Source: an uncultured Lentisphaeria bacterium
GTDB taxonomy: Bacteria > Verrucomicrobiota > Lentisphaeria > JABSQK01 > JAJFLO01
Assembly (NCBI GenBank): GCA_951812855.1
Contig: OX638337.1
Span: 450,001 to 482,000, forward strand
DNA length: 32,000 nucleotides
Reading direction: 5' to 3'
Below are positions 7,293 through 32,000 of the stretch, in pieces (positions within the stretch are counted from its first letter, which is position 1; every line of letters starts with the position of its first letter). The notes beneath the pieces are model-generated. The model was given only the letters and a program-made list of their open reading frames with translations. It made no database searches and was not told the origin of the DNA. Position numbers and translations under genes: made by a program.

Positions 7293-7376
7293 GCCGGAGT
7301 GGCGGAATTGGCAGACGCGCTGGACTCAAAATCCAGTTCTCGCAGGAGAGTGTGGGTTCGACCCCCACCTCCGGTA
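7293..7376 (+). tRNA. tRNA-Leu (anticodon CAA), type II with long variable arm
   Basis: Hand-folded. Acceptor gccggag/ctccggt (G1-U72 wobble); D-stem gcg/cgc; anticodon stem ctgga/tccag with loop cuCAAaa; variable arm tctc-gcag-gaga; T-arm gtggg-ttcgacc-cccac; discriminator A. CCA is not encoded. Confidence 0.93.
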
Positions 7377-23237: not shown

Positions 23238-24224
23238 TTAATGTGTACCAAATATTTCCGAATATTGATTTGCCCAATACGATACAAATATATCTGTTCC
23301 TGATCGATATAAGGCCATTATTGATTCCTGAACCAATGAATTTAGATCGCCCCAGCCATTTTGCGAGGATGCAGCCAACATTGAATATTCTCCGCTAACA
23401 TTATAGGCAGCAACAGGCAGGGAACATGTTTCCCGCAATTTGGAAATAATATCCAAATAGAATAACGATGGTTTTACCATTAAAATATCTGCTCCCTCAT
23501 CAATATCAGCATAAGATTCACGAAGTGCCAAATGACCATCCCTGTAAGAGGCTTGACAGGATTGTCGGTCTCCAGTGCCCGGTTTCGATAGAGCAGCTTC
23601 TCGAAACGGTCCATATAATGCCGACGCGAATTTTGTGGAATAACTCATAATAATTGAATTGACAAACCCTTCATTATCAAGTGCGTTGCGAATAGAGAGA
23701 ACTTGACCATCCATCATAGCACTCGGTGCTATCCCGTCGGCACCGGCACTGACATGGGATAAGGCCACCTTATCCAATAAGTCTAATGTTTGATCATTAT
23801 CCACATCACCATATTTATTCAAAACACCACAATGACCATGGTCAGTATAAGCACATAAACATACATCCGTAAAAATAATCAGTTCCGGATAATGTGATTT
23901 AAGTTCCCTGACAGCCTGCTGAACCAAGCCTTTGTCATCAAATGCATATTTCCCTGTTGAATCCTTGTGATTGTCTAAAACACCAAATAATAAAATTCCT
24001 CCTGTTCCAGATGATATGACAGGCTCCAGAGAAACGATTAACGTATCAATTGTATATCGGTATTGGCCCGGCATTGAGTTGATTGGAATTTTTTGGTTTT
24101 TACCTTCAATAATAAAAACCGGCCAAATAAATTTTTCTGGCCCGGGGAATGGCAGACCTGTCATATTCCGTAACGATTTTGTACGCCTTAATCGTCTGAG
24201 TCGAACATCGGGAAAACTACTCAT
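23238..24224 (-). CDS. hemB: Porphobilinogen synthase (delta-aminolevulinate dehydratase)
   Basis: RLRRLRRTKSLRNM near the N-terminus, a DVCLCAYTDHGHCG metal site (Cys-rich, zinc type), the active-site Lys region MVKPSLFYLDII, and YNVSGEYSM. Confidence 0.95.
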   Translation of the reverse strand: MSSFPDVRLRRLRRTKSLRNMTGLPFPGPEKFIWPVFIIEGKNQKIPINSMPGQYRYTIDTLIVSLEPVISSGTGGILLFGVLDNHKDSTGKYAFDDKGLVQQAVRELKSHYPELIIFTDVCLCAYTDHGHCGVLNKYGDVDNDQTLDLLDKVALSHVSAGADGIAPSAMMDGQVLSIRNALDNEGFVNSIIMSYSTKFASALYGPFREAALSKPGTGDRQSCQASYRDGHLALRESYADIDEGADILMVKPSLFYLDIISKLRETCSLPVAAYNVSGEYSMLAASSQNGWGDLNSLVQESIMALYRSGTDIFVSYWANQYSEIFGTH

Positions 24225-24328: not shown

Positions 24329-26464
24329 CTACTCTAATTTTAGCATATTTGCGAAAACATAATTCGATGCAGCCGCACGAATACTTGCTTCAATGCCGGC
24401 TTCATTTGAAACAAGATAATGGGTACATGCCGCTTTTGATAAAGCATTTGCAGTAGGGCCTCCAATAGCAACAACAACCTTTTGGTCTAATGCTGCACTC
24501 TTAAAATTTGTTACAAATGCTGAAACAGCCGAACTGCTGGCAAAAATAACCGCATCAAATTCTGGTAATATGCTATAGTTCTTCAATTGGTTTTTGTAAA
24601 TCACACAATCTGTAACACCGGCACCTGGATTACAAAATGCATTTTCGACACGCTTATCGGCTAAATCAGAACGAAGTCTTAAGATTTTATCTTTTTTCTG
24701 AACAAAATCAATCGCTGATTTAATCATCGAATCTGCACTGAACCTGGAATCTGGAACAACCTCCGCCTGTAATCCATATTTTTGCAGTTCCCGATTGACG
24801 CCCTCTCCTGAAACTATAATTTTTGGTATCTCCCTAATATCTATTTTACTTAAAATGATTAGATCCATCATACAACGAACAGACGATGGAGACGTTAAAA
24901 TAACCCAGTCAAACTCATGAATCCGTGAGAGAACATTTATTGCGGACATATTCGGGATTAATCTGATCATTGGCATTTTGACTGGAATTCCACCATAATT
25001 CAATACCTCATTTTCTGCAATATCCTGCAAAATATCACTACAGGTAATTAAAATGCGTTTCCCCTGTAATGCACTGTGAGAGGCAACATATTTAAACTTT
25101 TTGTTGGCAATTGTTCCAACGATCAGCAACCCGGGAAGGTCTGATTTATTTTCCTCAACTAAATCTGGAATAGTCTCTAATGTTCCCGAAATAATTTTCT
25201 GACATGAGGTGCCGGCTGCAAATATCATGACAGCATATTCTTTTGGATTGCGTCCTTCTCCTAAAAGTTGATTAATAATTTCTCCTGTTTTAGTAACAGC
25301 CATATAAAATACAAGAGAGAGTTTGCTTCTAACCGATACGTCAATTGGGTTACTGTTACCGTCAGCCAGCCAGGGAGTGATGACAGTATACCCTCTGGAA
25401 ATCCCCCGCCGTGTAAGAAGAAAACCTGTTCCGGTAGTAGCAGCATTCAGGCTTCCAACACCTGGAATAACACGAAAAGGCAAATGCCAGTGACCTATTG
25501 CGGAAATTTCCTCAGAAAGTCGCCCGAATATTCCGGCGTCCCCGCCTTTTAATCGGACAACCCTTTTCCCCTGCCTAATATAATCTACCATCAATTGCTC
25601 AAGCTTATGTTTGGGCAGAGAGTATTTACCGTGCCTTTTCCCACAATCTATTCCTTCTGCATCGTCTCTCAAATGGGCTAATAATTGGTGCGACACTAAC
25701 GCATCGTACAAGCAAACATCACAAACTTTAAGTGCTTTTACGCCTGCTGCCGTACATAAATCCTCATGCCCCGGACCTCCACTTACAAATACGGCGGGAT
25801 GAATGAATAAACTCCTTAACTGTTGAACCCGTCGATCTGATTTTCGAAATGTAACAGCAAGATAACCTTGCCCTTTTGGAACCTGCAATTCTGATAATGG
25901 AATTATTTCTGAAATTCGGTTCTTGAGATTTAATCGATTCAATGCAGCTGCAGCCATAATCAGAACATCGAATTCACCATTATCCAAAGCTGTTAATCTT
26001 TTTTCTATTGTTCCTCTGACATGTTTCAATTTACAATCGGGAAAACGATGCAGTGCATAGGCTTCCCGTCGTTCACTGCTAATCCCAACCAATGGCTGCT
26101 TTGGTAGATTTTCTATCAAATCGTCACTGCGGAAGACCAGTGCATCCCGGGAATCTTCCCGCCATGGCAGCCAAAACCAATCTAATTGATCATCTAAGCA
26201 TTCAGGCATATCTTTAGCACTGTGAATTGCAAAATCCAGTTTATTATCCAGAACTGCCCTGTCCAAATAGTTAGTGAAAAAATCAGGGTTACTTGATTGT
26301 AAATCAGACGTTTGATCCTCATCACCGGGACTGCTCATCGGAATGATTGTAAATGAAATCCCCGGAATAATAGTTTGAATTCTGTCAACAGCATCTTTGG
26401 TCTGTACTCTTGAAAGATTACTTGAACGAGTTCCAACCGTAAAAATTAATTTAGATTTTGCCAA
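24329..26464 (-). CDS. Triple-fusion tetrapyrrole enzyme: HemC-like N-terminal domains (about aa 1-220), uroporphyrinogen-III C-methyltransferase CobA/SUMT (about aa 224-456) and uroporphyrinogen-III synthase HemD (about aa 468-705)
   Basis: HemC part: TVGTRSSNLSRVQT, HSAKDMP, GISSERRE, VRGTIEKRLTALDNGEFDVLIMAAAALNRL, VPKGQGYLAV. SUMT part: VSGGPGHEDL...DVCLYDALV, VRLKGGDAGIFGR, VIPGVGS. HemD part: RILITCS...GGIPVKMPMIRL...DWVILTSPSSV...FASSSAV. The start is TTG at 26464, preceded by GGAGA 8 nt upstream. Confidence 0.9.
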   Translation of the reverse strand: MAKSKLIFTVGTRSSNLSRVQTKDAVDRIQTIIPGISFTIIPMSSPGDEDQTSDLQSSNPDFFTNYLDRAVLDNKLDFAIHSAKDMPECLDDQLDWFWLPWREDSRDALVFRSDDLIENLPKQPLVGISSERREAYALHRFPDCKLKHVRGTIEKRLTALDNGEFDVLIMAAAALNRLNLKNRISEIIPLSELQVPKGQGYLAVTFRKSDRRVQQLRSLFIHPAVFVSGGPGHEDLCTAAGVKALKVCDVCLYDALVSHQLLAHLRDDAEGIDCGKRHGKYSLPKHKLEQLMVDYIRQGKRVVRLKGGDAGIFGRLSEEISAIGHWHLPFRVIPGVGSLNAATTGTGFLLTRRGISRGYTVITPWLADGNSNPIDVSVRSKLSLVFYMAVTKTGEIINQLLGEGRNPKEYAVMIFAAGTSCQKIISGTLETIPDLVEENKSDLPGLLIVGTIANKKFKYVASHSALQGKRILITCSDILQDIAENEVLNYGGIPVKMPMIRLIPNMSAINVLSRIHEFDWVILTSPSSVRCMMDLIILSKIDIREIPKIIVSGEGVNRELQKYGLQAEVVPDSRFSADSMIKSAIDFVQKKDKILRLRSDLADKRVENAFCNPGAGVTDCVIYKNQLKNYSILPEFDAVIFASSSAVSAFVTNFKSAALDQKVVVAIGGPTANALSKAACTHYLVSNEAGIEASIRAAASNYVFANMLKLE

Positions 26465-26702: not shown

Positions 26703-28007
26703 TTATTCCGGAATATCTTTGCCGTGCGGATCTTGTGTAGGCAGTTCTGTTTTCAGCAGAAGTTGTTTCTGCATTTTAGAATCGGTTACATGCTCAAATC
26801 GTTCTGCACTAAAATGTAAATGATCAATTGGAAGATTCAGATATTTATGGAGATAAGCCTCCCATAATCGATGGGATCGGATCAATGATTTCGCCATCCT
26901 TTTCCCTCTGTCTGTCAATTTGAAGTTACCATTATCAACACAAATTTTTTTATCCAGTTTTAATGAAATTATAGCTGAAAAATACATCCCTTTCCCGTAT
27001 CCTGTCACCTTACGGAATAAATCAGAGTTAACCTGTAGATCATTAACGTTTTTCAATTCTCCCAAACGGTATAAAAGCCCCAGAATATCCTCCCGGGATA
27101 TTCTTAGAAGAGTCCAAAAACGCTCTACAGACTTAATTACAATTCCATGCTTAGGTCCGAAAAACAGTGTGATGAAAAATAATGCACCGGATGCAACTGC
27201 AATCATCCCCGCAGTACTGGTGTCCTCATATCCTATAAAATTTGGTAATTTCAGTGCACCGACATGTCCGAGTACTGCACTCAGTTCTGCAATAAGTAAA
27301 CTAATAAGTATCATCGTACGCAAACGGTCGGTAATAAGCCAGGCCGTTGCCGGTGGAACAATAAGCATTGCTATAACCAGTATGCTTCCGACACTTTCAA
27401 ACGATGCAACAGTTGTTACCGCAACAAGTGTCATTAAAATAAAATGCATCCATAATGCATTCGCGCCGACTGTTGTGGCAAGCTCCGGATCAAACGAACT
27501 AATTTTTAATTCTTTGTAAAAAAAAATAACAAATAACGCATTTAGAACGAATACTGTTGTCAATACAATCACAGCTCTGGGAACTGGAATATTAAATACC
27601 GTTTTCGTGTCCAGCGGTACAAGTTCTATTGCACCATAGAGTACACAACCGGGATCTAAATCCACAGCGTCGGCTCCTTTTACAATCATAATCAGTCCCA
27701 CCGCAAACAACGTGGTAAAAACAACACCCATTGAAGCACTTTCTTCAACTTTTCCTAATCGATGAATCAAATCGGTAAAAACTGCCGTTAATATTCCAAC
27801 CACAGCTGCACCGAAAAACATGGTAATGCTGTCTCTGCTGCCACTGATAAGAAAAGCAGCGGCCAAACCGGGCAAAACAGCATGGCTGATCGCATCACCC
27901 ATCATGCTTAATCGGCGTAATACCATAAAATTACCCAATAACGCACAGGATAATGCACTTAAAATACCCGTTATGACTATCCAGTTGTCAAGATCTGTCC
28001 AATTCAT
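26703..28007 (-). CDS. Metal ABC transporter permease (ABC-3/TroD/YtgD position) fused to a C-terminal DtxR-like repressor domain (about 26703-27125)
   Basis: Residues 1-290 are a polytopic ABC-3-type permease (MGDAISHAVLPG, SFESVGSILVIAMLIVPPATA). Residues about 295-434 align colinearly with DtxR residues 1-130: REDILGLLYRLGE, a winged-helix region, LTDRGKRMAKSLIRSHRLWEAYL, HLHFSAERFEHV, DPHGKDIPE. Confidence 0.85.
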   Translation of the reverse strand: MNWTDLDNWIVITGILSALSCALLGNFMVLRRLSMMGDAISHAVLPGLAAAFLISGSRDSITMFFGAAVVGILTAVFTDLIHRLGKVEESASMGVVFTTLFAVGLIMIVKGADAVDLDPGCVLYGAIELVPLDTKTVFNIPVPRAVIVLTTVFVLNALFVIFFYKELKISSFDPELATTVGANALWMHFILMTLVAVTTVASFESVGSILVIAMLIVPPATAWLITDRLRTMILISLLIAELSAVLGHVGALKLPNFIGYEDTSTAGMIAVASGALFFITLFFGPKHGIVIKSVERFWTLLRISREDILGLLYRLGELKNVNDLQVNSDLFRKVTGYGKGMYFSAIISLKLDKKICVDNGNFKLTDRGKRMAKSLIRSHRLWEAYLHKYLNLPIDHLHFSAERFEHVTDSKMQKQLLLKTELPTQDPHGKDIPE

Positions 28008-28096
28008 TTTCGATATGTTGGTTATGTTTAATACGCTATAGACCGCAGAAAATTATAAACAAAGAGATCTCATACTATTGAGTAAACTCTCTAAAT

Positions 28097-29494
28097 TCAT
28101 TTCTCATCAGCCAATGGATGAGGGCTTGGCAGCAACACTGAGTCGGGTTGCTCAGATAATAATAATCGTTCAAGTCTGTCGACCATCGAATGTCCAAGTA
28201 CATGTTCAATCTGATCTGCATCTCTATCGACCTTTCCAGGTGCCAGTTCGGCATAAAATATTAAATATGTTTCCCATAATCGATGATTTCTTACGATCCG
28301 TTTTGCTTCAACGAACCCATCTTCTGTGAAATGATATTTATCATCTGCACCTCGGTAAACGAGGTCATCGGATATGGCTTCAGCTAAGAGTTTTAACAAT
28401 TTCCTTTTTGACCATGAACGATCTGAAAGCAGGTAATCCAAGGTAATTCCGGGCCGTTGGGAACACTTTTTCAGTTGGGTATCCAACAAATTTTTATCAA
28501 AATTTTCAATCCCTTCACAGATTGATCTCAGTAGATGTTGTCGCGACACTTTCTTCTCCAACTTCCAGGACATGAAGTATCGAATACACAACCCTCGAGA
28601 ATATCCAAAAAATAAGCTGACAGAAAAAATGAATGAAGAAACAAGAACAATGATCGCCCCGGCAGGAAGTTTTTCAAAAAGTGCACTCAGAATGGCACCA
28701 AACAATCCACTTGCAGCACCAATGACAGCTGCTATAATTACCATTCTAAATAGTGAATCTGTCCAGAATCGAGCAGAAGCTGCCGGTATAACCATAATCG
28801 CAATGATAAGAATCAGCCCTACAGACTGCAGACCGATAACCGTAACAGAAACGACCAGAAGCATCATCGCAATATCCAGCCTGACAGTCGGCCACCCCTG
28901 GGTCCCGGCATAGTCTTGATCGAAACATAAAATAGAAAATTCCTTGAAAAGGAACAGACATAATACCACAATGATCATTGCAGTTCCGGCAATTAAGTAT
29001 GCATCCCGGGTCAGCATTGATGCAGTCTTTCCATATATAAATGATTCCAAACCCGCAGCACTGCCCTTGCTCATCTTTTGGATAATACCCAGAATTGATA
29101 CACCAATACCGAAAAATACACTCAAAACAATTCCGAGAGCGGCATCTTCTTTTAAATGACTTGTCTGTGTGATTAATAATATTAATCCCATTCCGGTGAT
29201 CCCGGATAAAAATGCTCCGGACAACAGCCCGGGAAGAAACTTTCCATCACCGCCATTTGCGACCATAATCATAAATGCTATTGCAATGCCCGGTAATGTT
29301 GCGTGGCTCACAGCATCTCCCATTAACGATCGTTTTCGTAATAACATGAATGTACCAATTATTCCCCCGGCAAGTCCCAGCAGCATAACACCGACAATGA
29401 CCAGCCGCGTATTATAATCTTTCAATAATAACACGCGCATTAAATCCGTACGCTCCGGCAATTGAGAGTAAATGTTCAAGAGGATTTTATTCAT
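28097..29494 (-). CDS. Metal ABC transporter permease (ABC-3/TroC/YtgC position) fused to a C-terminal DtxR-like repressor domain (about 28097-28564)
   Basis: Permease core (MGDAVSHATLPG, GLQSVGLILIIAIMVIPAASA), then a tail: SRQHLLRSICEGIE, ITLDYLLSDRSWSKRKLLKLLAEAISDDLVYR, FTEDGFVEAKRIVRNHRLWETYL, DRDADQIEHV, PSPHP. I chose the ATG at 29494, which gives an ATGAATAA start/stop overlap with the upstream ATPase (stop at 29487-29489). The ORF-track start at 29536 would overlap by 50 nt. Confidence 0.85.
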   Translation of the reverse strand: MNKILLNIYSQLPERTDLMRVLLLKDYNTRLVIVGVMLLGLAGGIIGTFMLLRKRSLMGDAVSHATLPGIAIAFMIMVANGGDGKFLPGLLSGAFLSGITGMGLILLITQTSHLKEDAALGIVLSVFFGIGVSILGIIQKMSKGSAAGLESFIYGKTASMLTRDAYLIAGTAMIIVVLCLFLFKEFSILCFDQDYAGTQGWPTVRLDIAMMLLVVSVTVIGLQSVGLILIIAIMVIPAASARFWTDSLFRMVIIAAVIGAASGLFGAILSALFEKLPAGAIIVLVSSFIFSVSLFFGYSRGLCIRYFMSWKLEKKVSRQHLLRSICEGIENFDKNLLDTQLKKCSQRPGITLDYLLSDRSWSKRKLLKLLAEAISDDLVYRGADDKYHFTEDGFVEAKRIVRNHRLWETYLIFYAELAPGKVDRDADQIEHVLGHSMVDRLERLLLSEQPDSVLLPSPHPLADEK

Positions 29495-30284
29495 GAATTC
29501 TCGCTTCCCGGGTATAGGCTTGAACAGCTTCTTCAAGCAGGGTTAAACGGCCGCCATAAGTCTTGTGTAGATTTTCCTGGGTGAAAACATTCTTTGTTAA
29601 ACCGGTGGCAACGATGCGCATATTCAGCATGATTAAACTATCAAAATACTGTTTCACGGTCTGTAGAGTATGATGAACAATTAATACCGTTTTACCTTTT
29701 GATTTCAGATCATGCAGAATGGTGACAATCGCTTTTTCAGTTGCAGCATCAACCCCGACAAAGGGTTCATCCATAAAGTAAATTTGTGCATCCTGAGCAA
29801 GGGCGCGCGCCAAAAAAATACGTTGCTGCTGTCCGCCCGACAACTGGCTGATTTGACGATGGGCATAATCTGCCATACCCACACGTTCCATAGCAAACAT
29901 TGCCAGATTTTTATAATGTTTAGTTACCGGTTTACACCATCCAATTTTCCCGTACAACCCCATAGAAACAACATCAAGGGCATTGACAGGAAAATCCCAA
30001 TCAACACTTTCCCGTTGAGGGACATAGCCGACAAGTGAGCGTTGTTTTTTGTAAATTTCCCCGTAAATCAAAATTCTGCCGGAAGTTTTAGGCACCAAAC
30101 CCAGAATAGCCTTTATCAGTGTACTCTTCCCGGCCCCGTTGGGGCCGATAATCCCGATAACCTGTCCTTCTTCAACCTCAAAATCAATATCCCACAACAC
30201 CGGTTTATGCTGATAGGCTACTGTTAAATCATGGACCAAAACCGGAATTTTACTTACGTTCTCAACATTGTGTATTCCATTCAT
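29487..30284 (-). CDS. Metal ABC transporter ATP-binding protein (TroB/ZnuC/YtgB-like)
   Basis: Walker A GPNGAGKST, Q-loop, signature LSGGQQQR, Walker B IYFMDEP, H-loop VHHTL. The size (265 aa) and operon position are typical. Confidence 0.93.
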   Translation of the reverse strand: MNGIHNVENVSKIPVLVHDLTVAYQHKPVLWDIDFEVEEGQVIGIIGPNGAGKSTLIKAILGLVPKTSGRILIYGEIYKKQRSLVGYVPQRESVDWDFPVNALDVVSMGLYGKIGWCKPVTKHYKNLAMFAMERVGMADYAHRQISQLSGGQQQRIFLARALAQDAQIYFMDEPFVGVDAATEKAIVTILHDLKSKGKTVLIVHHTLQTVKQYFDSLIMLNMRIVATGLTKNVFTQENLHKTYGGRLTLLEEAVQAYTREARIHE

Positions 30285-30291
30285 ATAAAAA

Positions 30292-31287
30292 TCAATGATT
30301 TGATTTTAGTATTAATTTCCCATGCATACCCTTTTCAGGCGCGAATCCACCCAAAGCATTGGTAATGGTTGTTACATTATGATCAATCATACCGATATAA
30401 GTCCCCTCGTATGATCCCGCTTCTCCCATAGCATCAGAATATAATGTCCCCCCAATCTTAATTATTTTTCCCTTCTCAGCAGCCCCCTCAATGAGTGCCT
30501 TTACATTCTTACTTGCAACACTGGTTTCAACGAATACGGCTTTAACATCACGCGTTACAATCAGGTCAATTAAATTATTGATATCTCTTAATCCGGCCTC
30601 CGATTCTGTTGAAATTCCCTGGATCCCCATCACGTCAATCCCATAGGCACGCCCGAAATAGTTAAATGCATCGTGTGCTGTAACGAGCACCCTGCCGGAT
30701 TCAGGAATAGAAGCAATGGATGTTACGGCATAGTCATTAAGTGTATTTAACTGTTTTATATAGGTATCTGCATTTTTTAAATAATAGGATGAGTTCTTCG
30801 GGTTGAATTCAGTTAATGATGTTGCGACCGCCTCAACAGCTCTGATCCATCCCCTGACATCCATCCATACATGGGGATCATAATGTCCTGAAAACTCAGG
30901 TGGCTCTAAAAGGTATTGTTCATCAATTAATTCAGTTACAGCATAAACAGGCTTCCCTTCAGCAGCAACTTTTATGAGTATATCTGCCATCTTCCCTTCC
31001 AGTGACAAGCCGGAATAAAAGATTATATCAGCATCCAAAAATTTGGCAACATCTCCGCGAGTTGGTTTATACAGATGGGGATCGACTCCCTCACCGATAA
31101 TATTGATGACTTCTGCTTTGTCCCCGGCAACATGTTTAACAATATCACCAACCATAGCAACCGTTGTTACAATTTTATATTCACCGGCTTCAGAAAATTC
31201 AGATTTACCAGGATTTCCAGATTTTCCGCATCCATTACTCAATATCATCAAAGCGATCAAAATCAGAAAAAAACGGAATTGTTTCAT
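30292..31287 (-). CDS. Metal ABC transporter substrate-binding lipoprotein (cluster A-I, TroA/ZnuA/YtgA family)
   Basis: Signal peptide with a lipobox-like LSNGC. Also GVDPHLY, YDPHVWMD, VTAHDAFNYF and LYSDAMG, the four metal-ligand segments of TroA/ZnuA/PsaA-type proteins. Confidence 0.92.
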   Translation of the reverse strand: MKQFRFFLILIALMILSNGCGKSGNPGKSEFSEAGEYKIVTTVAMVGDIVKHVAGDKAEVINIIGEGVDPHLYKPTRGDVAKFLDADIIFYSGLSLEGKMADILIKVAAEGKPVYAVTELIDEQYLLEPPEFSGHYDPHVWMDVRGWIRAVEAVATSLTEFNPKNSSYYLKNADTYIKQLNTLNDYAVTSIASIPESGRVLVTAHDAFNYFGRAYGIDVMGIQGISTESEAGLRDINNLIDLIVTRDVKAVFVETSVASKNVKALIEGAAEKGKIIKIGGTLYSDAMGEAGSYEGTYIGMIDHNVTTITNALGGFAPEKGMHGKLILKSNH

Positions 31288-31347
31288 TGGTCTACTTTCT
31301 ATATAGATGCAAACATTATTCTATAAATGAAATTTTTAATTTTATAT

Positions 31348-31369
31348 ACTAAAAATATGTATTTTTAGT
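31348..31369. promoter_or_regulatory. Candidate DtxR-family operator: perfect 10-bp inverted repeat with a 2-bp spacer
   Basis: actaaaaata (31348-31357), tg, tatttttagt (31360-31369). It lies in the 204-bp divergent intergenic region between the ABC operon and the free-standing dtxR-like gene, 61 nt upstream of the SBP start codon. Confidence 0.4.
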
Positions 31370-31491
31370 AATCGAAATAAAATTGATGCCATTATAATAA
31401 TTATTTTTTTGATTTTTGCAAAACAAATTGTACCGTTTATAGAAATTTTCGATATTTAAAGAAAACGAACCTCGTCTAAACGGTAAAAAAG

Positions 31492-32000
31492 ATGCCCAGC
31501 AGTACTGTTGAAAATTATTTAAAACAGATTTTTCTAGAGCAGCAAAAAAATTGCAACGATATCGTTGCAATGGGAAAATTAGCTGAAAGAATGGGGGTAT
31601 CACCCGGCACGGCAACATCAATGGTGAAATTACTCAGTAAATCTGAATTAGTTAACTATGAACCACGTAACGGCAGTAAATTGACACCGAAAGGAAGTGA
31701 ACTTGCAATTCATGTTTTACGCCGCCATCGACTCATTGAACTGTTCCTGGTACAAGAATTAGGACTTGACTGGTCCGAGGTCCATGAAGAAGCAGAAGCT
31801 CTGGAACATGCGATTTCCGAACAGGTATTAGAAAAAATTGATAAAAAATTAGGACACCCCGGCGTTGATCCGCACGGTGACCCGATTCCATCAGCCGAAG
31901 GAAAAATTAAAAAGAAAAAACTTGTAAATCTGGCGGATTGCAGGGCCGGTCAAACTACAATAATTGGCAGAATACTTGACCAAAATAGTGAGTTTTTAAA
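31492..32000 (+). CDS. DtxR/MntR/TroR-family metal-dependent transcriptional repressor (free-standing; 3' end outside the window)
   Basis: Not in the ORF track because it runs off the window. My translation: MPSSTVENYLKQIFLEQQKNCNDIVAMGKLAERMGVSPGTATSMVKLLSKSELVNYEPRNGSKLTPKGSELAIHVLRRHRLIELFLVQELGLDWSEVHEEAEALEHAISEQVLEKIDKKLGHPGVDPHGDPIPSAEG...LADCRAGQTTIIGRILDQNSEFL. H79, E83, H98, E102, E105 and H106 fall exactly on DtxR numbering. The end enters the SH3/FeoA-like domain. Confidence 0.9.
   Translation, partial: MPSSTVENYLKQIFLEQQKNCNDIVAMGKLAERMGVSPGTATSMVKLLSKSELVNYEPRNGSKLTPKGSELAIHVLRRHRLIELFLVQELGLDWSEVHEEAEALEHAISEQVLEKIDKKLGHPGVDPHGDPIPSAEGKIKKKKLVNLADCRAGQTTIIGRILDQNSEFL

Follow-up and report, generated by a model that had tools for sequence, protein, structure and literature searches.

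In the tro operon of Treponema pallidum, the regulator TroR is a short protein without an SH3 domain that is encoded inside the operon rather than divergently from it, and neither of the two permeases, TroC and TroD, is known to carry a DtxR-like tail. In Chlamydia trachomatis, the DtxR-like repressor YtgR is fused to the permease YtgC, is cleaved from it as a product of ~28–30 kDa and represses the ytg and trpBA promoters with Fe2+ (PMC5599777, PMC6504234, PMC7755916). Permease–repressor fusions reportedly occur in 11 phyla (Thompson 2012, cited in PMC5599777), and studies of them are confined to the single-fusion form of Chlamydia, an intractable pathogen with an obligate intracellular life. 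Here we describe a locus at the end of a 32,000-nt stretch of DNA (the window) from an uncultured Lentisphaeria bacterium (GenBank assembly GCA_951812855.1, contig OX638337.1, positions 450,001 to 482,000 of the forward strand). The locus encodes a predicted metal importer of the ATP-binding cassette (ABC) type in which both permeases, numbered 1 and 2 in operon order, continue into a DtxR-like tail, and next to which a free DtxR-family regulator gene starts divergently. An incomplete literature search found no description of the double fusion, of a separate clade of permease-2 tails or of a frequent free regulator. The permease–DtxR fusion as such is already known; its double-fused form is apparently undescribed but widespread.

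Results

Each permease open reading frame (ORF) continues past its last hydrophobic segment, as the initial annotation had observed, with tails of ~145–165 residues. Pfam finds Fe_dep_repr_C (PF02742), the metal-binding and dimerisation half of a DtxR-type regulator, in both permeases, with 70 bits in permease 2 and 50 bits in permease 1 at a cut-off of 27, but PF01325, the N-terminal DNA-binding domain, was not detected in either isolated tail even at E ≤ 10. The initial proposal of a DtxR domain in both tails is therefore borne out by Pfam for the C-terminal half and not for the N-terminal half; we do not read this miss as absence, because profile and structure tests recover the domain. With phmmer, residues 304–434 of permease 2 align to residues 4–131 of SloR and ScaR. 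Profiles built from homologous tails match PDB chains of the DtxR family (DtxR, IdeR, SloR, ScaR, MtsR and DR2539) over residues ~5–135 at E 5e-24 for permease 2 (profile A2) and over residues ~16–122 at E 4e-13 for permease 1 (profile A3). The AlphaFold 2 (AF2) models of both tails have a long helix 1, two short helices that make up the helix-turn-helix (HTH), a beta-hairpin wing and a long helix 4, with a predicted local distance difference test score (pLDDT) of 81 for the permease-1 tail and 72 for the permease-2 tail. Nearly all of the top 50 Foldseek matches of each tail model in the PDB are DtxR/MntR-family regulators, and the permease-1 tail superposes on DNA-bound DtxR with a root-mean-square deviation of 2.0–2.2 Å over ~129 columns. 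Taken together, both tails are predicted to be complete two-domain DtxR/MntR folds, winged helix included. The gap-free alignment to DtxR that had been claimed for them was not reproduced: both tails carry extra residues in the loop that joins helices 1 and 2, and in permease 1 there is a further insertion before the C-terminal SPH motif.

The connector that leads from the last membrane helix to tail helix 1 is free of insertions and deletions in the 120 listed homologues of each permease and is predicted by AF2 as one continuous helix (pLDDT 80–94), with tail helix 1 beginning only ~13 residues past the membrane domain. The nearest solved permeases are PsaC and ZnuB, and permease 2 matches PsaC (7kyp) over residues 11–288. 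PsaC, a protein of nine membrane helices, was produced with green fluorescent protein as a tag at its C-terminus, and its last helix, transmembrane helix 9 (TM9), is at the permease dimer interface (PMC8346216). By analogy with PsaC and the type II importer fold, the permease C-termini, and with them the tails, are probably cytoplasmic and, given the position of TM9, the two tails would leave the membrane close together.

Metal-site conservation was assessed in a joint alignment of 71 permease-1 tails, 53 permease-2 tails and 39 free regulators from the loci surveyed below. Positions are numbered as in the free regulator, in which H79, E83, H98, E102, E105 and H106 fall at DtxR ligand positions. 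At positions 8, 79, 83, 98, 102, 105 and 106 both window tails have D, E or H throughout, and nearly all of these residues are invariant across the 71 and 53 tails (Table 1). The invariant ligand-position residues of the permease-1 tail are H79, E83, D98, D102, E105 and H106; those of permease 2 (D307, H379, E383, H398, E405 and H406 in its own numbering) are invariant or nearly so in its 120 listed homologues. The ligand columns vary less among the tails than among the 39 free regulators from those loci, and the helices of the metal site and dimer interface have an entropy of 1.2–1.8 in the tails versus 1.6–1.8 in the free regulators.

Table 1 Predominant residues of the two tail types at and next to the DtxR ligand positions
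Position	Permease-2 tails	Permease-1 tails
7	E (72%)	Q (90%)
8	D (100%)	H (86%)
79	H (100%)	H (100%)
83	E (100%)	E (100%)
98	H (100%)	D (100%)
102	E (74%)	D (99%)
105	E (100%)	E (100%)
106	H (100%)	H (100%)

The DNA-contacting half follows the opposite trend. Conservation is lower in the tails than in the free regulators for helix 2, the recognition helix and the wing (entropy 2.2–3.3 versus 1.7–2.0), the permease-2 recognition helix reaches ~3 bits per exposed position, and T40, V41 and T42, which are the conserved recognition-helix residues of the free regulators, are not conserved in the tails. The recognition helix of permease-1 tails opens with an invariant R..W. The net charge of the HTH does not discriminate between models, given that the tails are as basic as the free regulators or more so. 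A further difference lies in the HRLWE motif, in which W82 is invariant in both tail clades whereas the free regulators of the same loci favour V, I or L; judged from the alignment, W82 is an apparent signature of the tethered modules. In a neighbour-joining tree, permease-1 tails, permease-2 tails and free regulators form separate clades, bar one stray sequence that may be a split permease-1 tail. The two tail types are sisters with weak support (mean distance 2.0 versus 2.2–2.5; bootstrap of the permease-2 clade 62/100). Separate tail clades with different ligand sets are what would be expected of differentiated partners.

The initial annotation had named read-level evidence of an assembly or frameshift artefact as one way in which its reading could fail, and contigs, homologues and selection show that the fusions are no such artefact. 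If they were assembly or frameshift artefacts that join separate genes, a reading to which we give practically no weight, identical ORFs would not be expected on two contigs, yet the same genes in the same order are present on the 1.94-Mb metagenome contig from which the window is taken (ENA ERZ18545485) and on a 30-kb alternative contig. Recurrence, with homologues in the thousands, argues the same way: the combination of ABC-3 and PF02742 is found in 120/120 listed homologues of each permease (240/240 together), at least 47 species-level loci have both permeases fused, and the junction is kept without insertions or deletions. The tails are also under purifying selection. Compared with the closest relative (82% identity), the ratio of non-synonymous to synonymous differences per site (pN/pS) is 0.2–0.27 in the tails and 0.10–0.12 in the membrane domains; pN/pS is given instead of the substitution-rate ratio dN/dS because synonymous sites are saturated in this comparison.

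To place the locus among its relatives, one genome per GTDB species was surveyed, ORFs were classed by phmmer and the best 80 loci were kept; the survey was seeded with permease-2 motifs, so that its frequencies apply to relatives and not to all bacteria. Both permeases are fused at 47/80 loci. Only permease 1 is fused at 24, all labelled Verrucomicrobiota (Opitutales, Akkermansiaceae, Verrucomicrobiales), which is the chlamydial YtgC/YtgD pattern; only permease 2 is fused at 5, neither at 1, and at 3 permease 1 was not recovered and the locus was left unscored. Where permease 2 is fused and permease 1 scorable, a permease-1 tail is nearly always present as well (47/52 loci). A free DtxR-family gene is adjacent at 19 of the 47 double-fused loci, nearby at 3 and absent from the fetched flank at 17, with 8 not assessable; it is thus adjacent at 19/39 of those with the upstream region available. 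The double-fused loci come from Pirellulaceae, Planctomycetaceae, Phycisphaerae, Gemmatales, Kuenenia and Gimesia, and further ones are found in Kiritimatiellia and in some metagenome-assembled genomes (MAGs) labelled Verrucomicrobia, Spirochaetia, Sumerlaeota and Desulfobacterales. Isolate genomes with the double fusion include Rhodopirellula sp. SWK7, Tautonia sociabilis GM2012 and Poriferisphaera sp. WC338, and among named relatives a MAG labelled Verrucomicrobia bacterium OFTM167 is nearest to the window. Searched against 1.84 billion cluster representatives, the permease-2 tail profile matches 175 clusters at E ≤ 1e-30 and 3701 at E ≤ 1e-10. The double-fused layout is the usual one in Planctomycetota and relatives. 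The fusion is common and visible from domain annotation, and databases name the homologues simply 'metal ABC transporter permease'. The rarity that the initial annotation implied is not supported, and the survey in part gives the outcome, an architecture already common, that the annotation itself had named as a refutation: more than half of the species-level loci are double-fused, and the exact architecture, adjacent free regulator included, recurs at the 19 loci given above.

Two variants were seen alongside these layouts. Four loci (L043, L047, L048 and L049, in MAGs of Pirellulaceae, Phycisphaeraceae, Planctomycetales and Gemmatales) have an unfused permease 1 and a fused permease 2, with long permease-1 ORFs in two of the four; with this reverse single fusion, all three fusion states therefore occur in nature. 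An 806-aa protein in the representative library (P0269) has two ABC-3 domains in one chain and one permease-2-type tail, a variant with both permeases in one polypeptide and a single sensor module.

The genes of the locus are listed in Table 2. Four co-directional minus-strand genes with short or overlapping junctions span 26703–31287, and all four ORFs (substrate-binding protein (SBP), ATPase, permease 1 and permease 2) have the coordinates first assigned to them. The permease 1 ORF (28097–29494) encodes 465 aa when counted from the ATG at 29494, with an alternative TTG start that extends it to 29536, and its start overlaps the ATPase stop by 8 nt; the permease 2 ORF (26703–28007) encodes 434 aa. 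The nearest solved structure to the SBP is Treponema pallidum TroA (1toa, E 8e-72), and the TroA H-H-H-D ligand motifs are kept in the alignment as DPHLY, DPHVW, TAHDAF and SDAMG; ligands of this type fit Zn, Mn or Fe. The locus belongs to the metal importers of cluster A-I/ABC-3, with Mn, Zn or Fe as candidate substrates, and is of Tro/Ytg type because its SBP is closest to TroA with the four ligand motifs kept. The free regulator runs past the window end, and on the source contig it has 225 aa with PF01325, PF02742 and a FeoA/SH3 domain; its best NCBIfam match is a Thermus-type MntR (157 bits), below the cut-off of that model. Both the stand-alone DtxR-type gene diverging from 31492 and the overall anatomy first proposed, three DtxR modules at one locus with two on permeases and one free, are upheld by Pfam, profiles and models.

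Table 2 Features of the importer locus in window coordinates
Feature	Position	Strand	Evidence
Substrate-binding lipoprotein, TroA-like, 331 aa	30292..31287	-	Pfam ZnuA (PF01297), 262 bits
ABC ATPase, 265 aa	29487..30284	-	Pfam ABC_tran (PF00005); NCBIfam Mn/Fe ABC ATPase, 232 bits
Permease 1, ABC-3 membrane domain, aa 1–302, TroC/YtgC position	28589..29494	-	Pfam ABC-3 (PF00950), 203 bits
Permease 1 tail, helical connector and predicted two-domain DtxR-like module, aa 303–465	28097..28588	-	PF02742, 50–53 bits
Permease 2, ABC-3 membrane domain, aa 1–288, TroD/YtgD position	27144..28007	-	Pfam ABC-3, 159 bits
Permease 2 tail, helical connector and predicted two-domain DtxR-like module, aa 289–434	26703..27143	-	PF02742, 70–73 bits
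Putative divergent promoter/operator region	31288..31491	none	Promoter-like site and inverted repeat
Free DtxR-family regulator, first 169 of 225 codons in window	31492..32000	+	PF01325 and PF02742

In the divergent region, a sigma-70-like sequence (TTGCAA-16-TATTAT, 31421–31394, minus strand) is a promoter-like site for the operon and, read by eye from the sequence, is kept in the closest relative as TTGCAA-16-TATAAT. A perfect 10+10 inverted repeat, CTAAAAATA-TG-TATTTTTAG, lies at 31349–31368 in the presumed 5' untranslated region of the SBP gene, inside a longer imperfect repeat of 23 nt. The perfect repeat is not conserved in the closest relative (L003), which has an imperfect palindrome, ATTTTGgTTAAtCAAAAT, a few bases away. 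With the repeat not kept in L003, it is a candidate operator at most, and we claim no operator; a chance estimate made for the repeat is circular, since its pattern was derived from this very sequence.

Elsewhere in the window, the importer is followed directly, on the same strand and 238 nt past permease 2, by two further genes. A single 711-aa ORF (24329–26464, minus strand) combines HemC (porphobilinogen deaminase), a SUMT/CobA-like tetrapyrrole methylase and HemD (uroporphyrinogen-III synthase), and an ALAD/hemB gene comes after it (23238–24224, minus strand). The sole Rfam match in the window at the gathering threshold is a tRNA gene at 7293–7376 (plus strand).

Discussion

The reading that we favour, though only tentatively, is that the two tails pair as a tethered DtxR-like dimer which detects metal in the cytoplasm and acts back on the transporter, with transcription under the control of the free regulator. 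The tails of permease 1 and permease 2 in a given transporter complex would join into a pseudo-symmetric DtxR-type dimer. Cytoplasmic metal filling the tail sites would shift helix 1, which bears a ligand and would be continuous with the last membrane helix, and helix 1 would pass this shift on to the membrane domains, where it would slow or lock import (trans-inhibition). Transcriptional repression at the shared promoter would be left to the free regulator, although some proteolytic release and DNA binding of the tails may also occur, given that the permease-1 tail is the same kind of fusion as YtgC–YtgR. For the double-fused form, we prefer a sensor built into the transporter because the connector is conserved, fixed in length and predicted to be rigid, because tail helix 1 carries a metal ligand and TM9 is at the permease dimer interface in PsaC, and because the two tails co-occur almost obligatorily, constraint is relaxed at DNA-contact positions and the divergent promoter has a canonical regulator beside it. 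The importer would then be under metal feedback at two levels; layered control, as proposed in the initial annotation, is plausible.

Several observations weigh against this reading. The sole experimental data on such fusions are the cleavage of YtgR and its iron-dependent binding to an operator (PMC5599777, PMC7755916). Both tails keep a winged-helix fold and a basic recognition helix, which suits DNA binding, and since loci of the chlamydial type, which have a tail on permease 1 alone, show the same HTH variability, that variability is compatible with DNA binding. Finally, the single-fusion loci (24 for permease 1 and 5 for permease 2) cannot form a dimer inside one complex.

Nearly as likely, and not exclusive of a sensor in the transporter, is that both tails follow the route of YtgR: they would be cleaved off, dimerise with their own kind or with each other, bind metal and act as repressors of the operon and of further genes, with the free regulator adding a second metal or a different regulon. 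This is the only mechanism with experimental support, since YtgC–YtgR, from a locus with the same gene order and the same fusion of the first permease, yields the ~28–30 kDa product that binds its own promoter with Fe2+ (PMC5599777, PMC6504234, PMC7755916). The full winged-helix fold with a basic recognition helix in both tails, the invariant R..W of permease-1 tails and the 17/39 assessable double-fused loci without a free regulator in the fetched sequence all fit a released repressor. However, the tails have not kept the DNA-contact residues of the free regulators, and permease 2 is the most variable at them (entropy ~3 bits), the connector is a conserved, fixed-length and predicted helix rather than a flexible linker, the divergent promoter already has a canonical regulator here, and every repressor released would cost one transporter subunit. 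It is improbable, in our view, that the tails instead bind operator DNA at the membrane without being cleaved, in the manner of membrane-anchored regulators, which would link transport directly to repression. Full-length YtgC did repress a reporter in E. coli, and membrane-anchored repression was noted as possible by reviewers (PMC5599777); the winged HTH fold and its positive charge are retained as well. But helix 1 begins ~13 residues past the membrane domain, which leaves little room for DNA between tails, membrane and ATPases, and the HTH contact residues are not conserved.

The tails could also lack any regulatory output: they might help the permease heterodimer to assemble or support its structure, or they might accept or buffer metal where it leaves the transporter on the cytoplasmic side. 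The dimerisation domain is indeed their best conserved part, and they adjoin the presumed exit of the pathway; we nevertheless consider this, too, to have a low probability, because many relatives function with one tail or none and because complete sets of DtxR-type ligands, unchanged across a deep phylogeny, indicate that the tails bind metal specifically and to some effect.

A stronger form of the transporter-sensor reading, which we consider less likely than not, is that the tails have lost any action on DNA and form an obligate heterodimer of DtxR-like modules tethered to the membrane. The repressor fold would then have been re-used as an allosteric gate, in which metal moves helix 1, continuous with the pore-lining last helix, and the importer shuts. 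If true, ABC importers would have a mode of trans-inhibition that is new and that is common across Planctomycetota and their relatives, and chlamydial YtgR would be recast as a derived single-tail offshoot.

Whichever mechanism applies, free-living Planctomycetota, Kiritimatiellia and some Verrucomicrobiota and Spirochaetia commonly have both permeases fused, and often a free regulator beside them. Tractable organisms among them open the way to the questions that YtgC poses: how a membrane-fused repressor works, as a released repressor or as a sensor that gates transport, whether YtgC itself transports (PMC7755916), and by which protease and cleavage signal YtgR is released.

Among known systems, the ZnuBC importer offers a parallel for feedback on transport. 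It has a permease of the same ABC-3 family, and an attached cytoplasmic metal-binding domain that dimerises and feeds back on transport, beside the free regulator Zur. Its sensor is a small Cys/His motif on the ATPase, the zinc-sensing CxxxHxCC at the ZnuC C-terminus (PMC12236471), whereas the locus described here has a full, predicted DtxR-like fold on each permease and trans-inhibition would be our extrapolation. The CxxxHxCC motif is absent from the window ATPase, whose C-terminus, read from the sequence, ends in ...EEAVQAYTREARIHE with no Cys motif.

The tails share with the free DtxR/MntR regulators (DtxR, IdeR, SloR, ScaR, MtsR and DR2539) the two-domain fold and the ligand positions 8, 79, 83, 98, 102, 105 and 106, and the DPHG..IP end motif of these regulators is also present in the permease-2 tail. 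They differ in being membrane-tethered, in having no SH3 domain, in their invariant W82 and in a recognition helix that is not conserved. With troABCD–troR of Treponema pallidum, the locus shares a TroA-type SBP, two ABC-3 permeases and a DtxR-family regulator at the locus.

The closest match is YtgABCD of Chlamydia trachomatis, with the same gene order of SBP, ATPase, permease 1 and permease 2. The comparison with YtgC–YtgR drawn in the initial annotation is apt, in that permease 1 combines ABC-3 and a DtxR-like domain in one ORF; in both systems the first permease has a C-terminal DtxR-like domain with the metal ligands kept, and, judged by architecture, the permease-1 tail is the probable counterpart of YtgR. 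Two differences stand out. The second permease is also fused here, with a tail from a separate clade, whereas in Chlamydia only the first is; and a free DtxR regulator is adjacent here, whereas none is known in Chlamydia, where YtgR is described as the only iron-dependent regulator (PMC6504234). Chlamydia and the source organism of the window both belong to the Planctomycetota–Verrucomicrobiota–Chlamydiota (PVC) group, and the comparison suggests that Chlamydia has a reduced form of a design that is older within this group.

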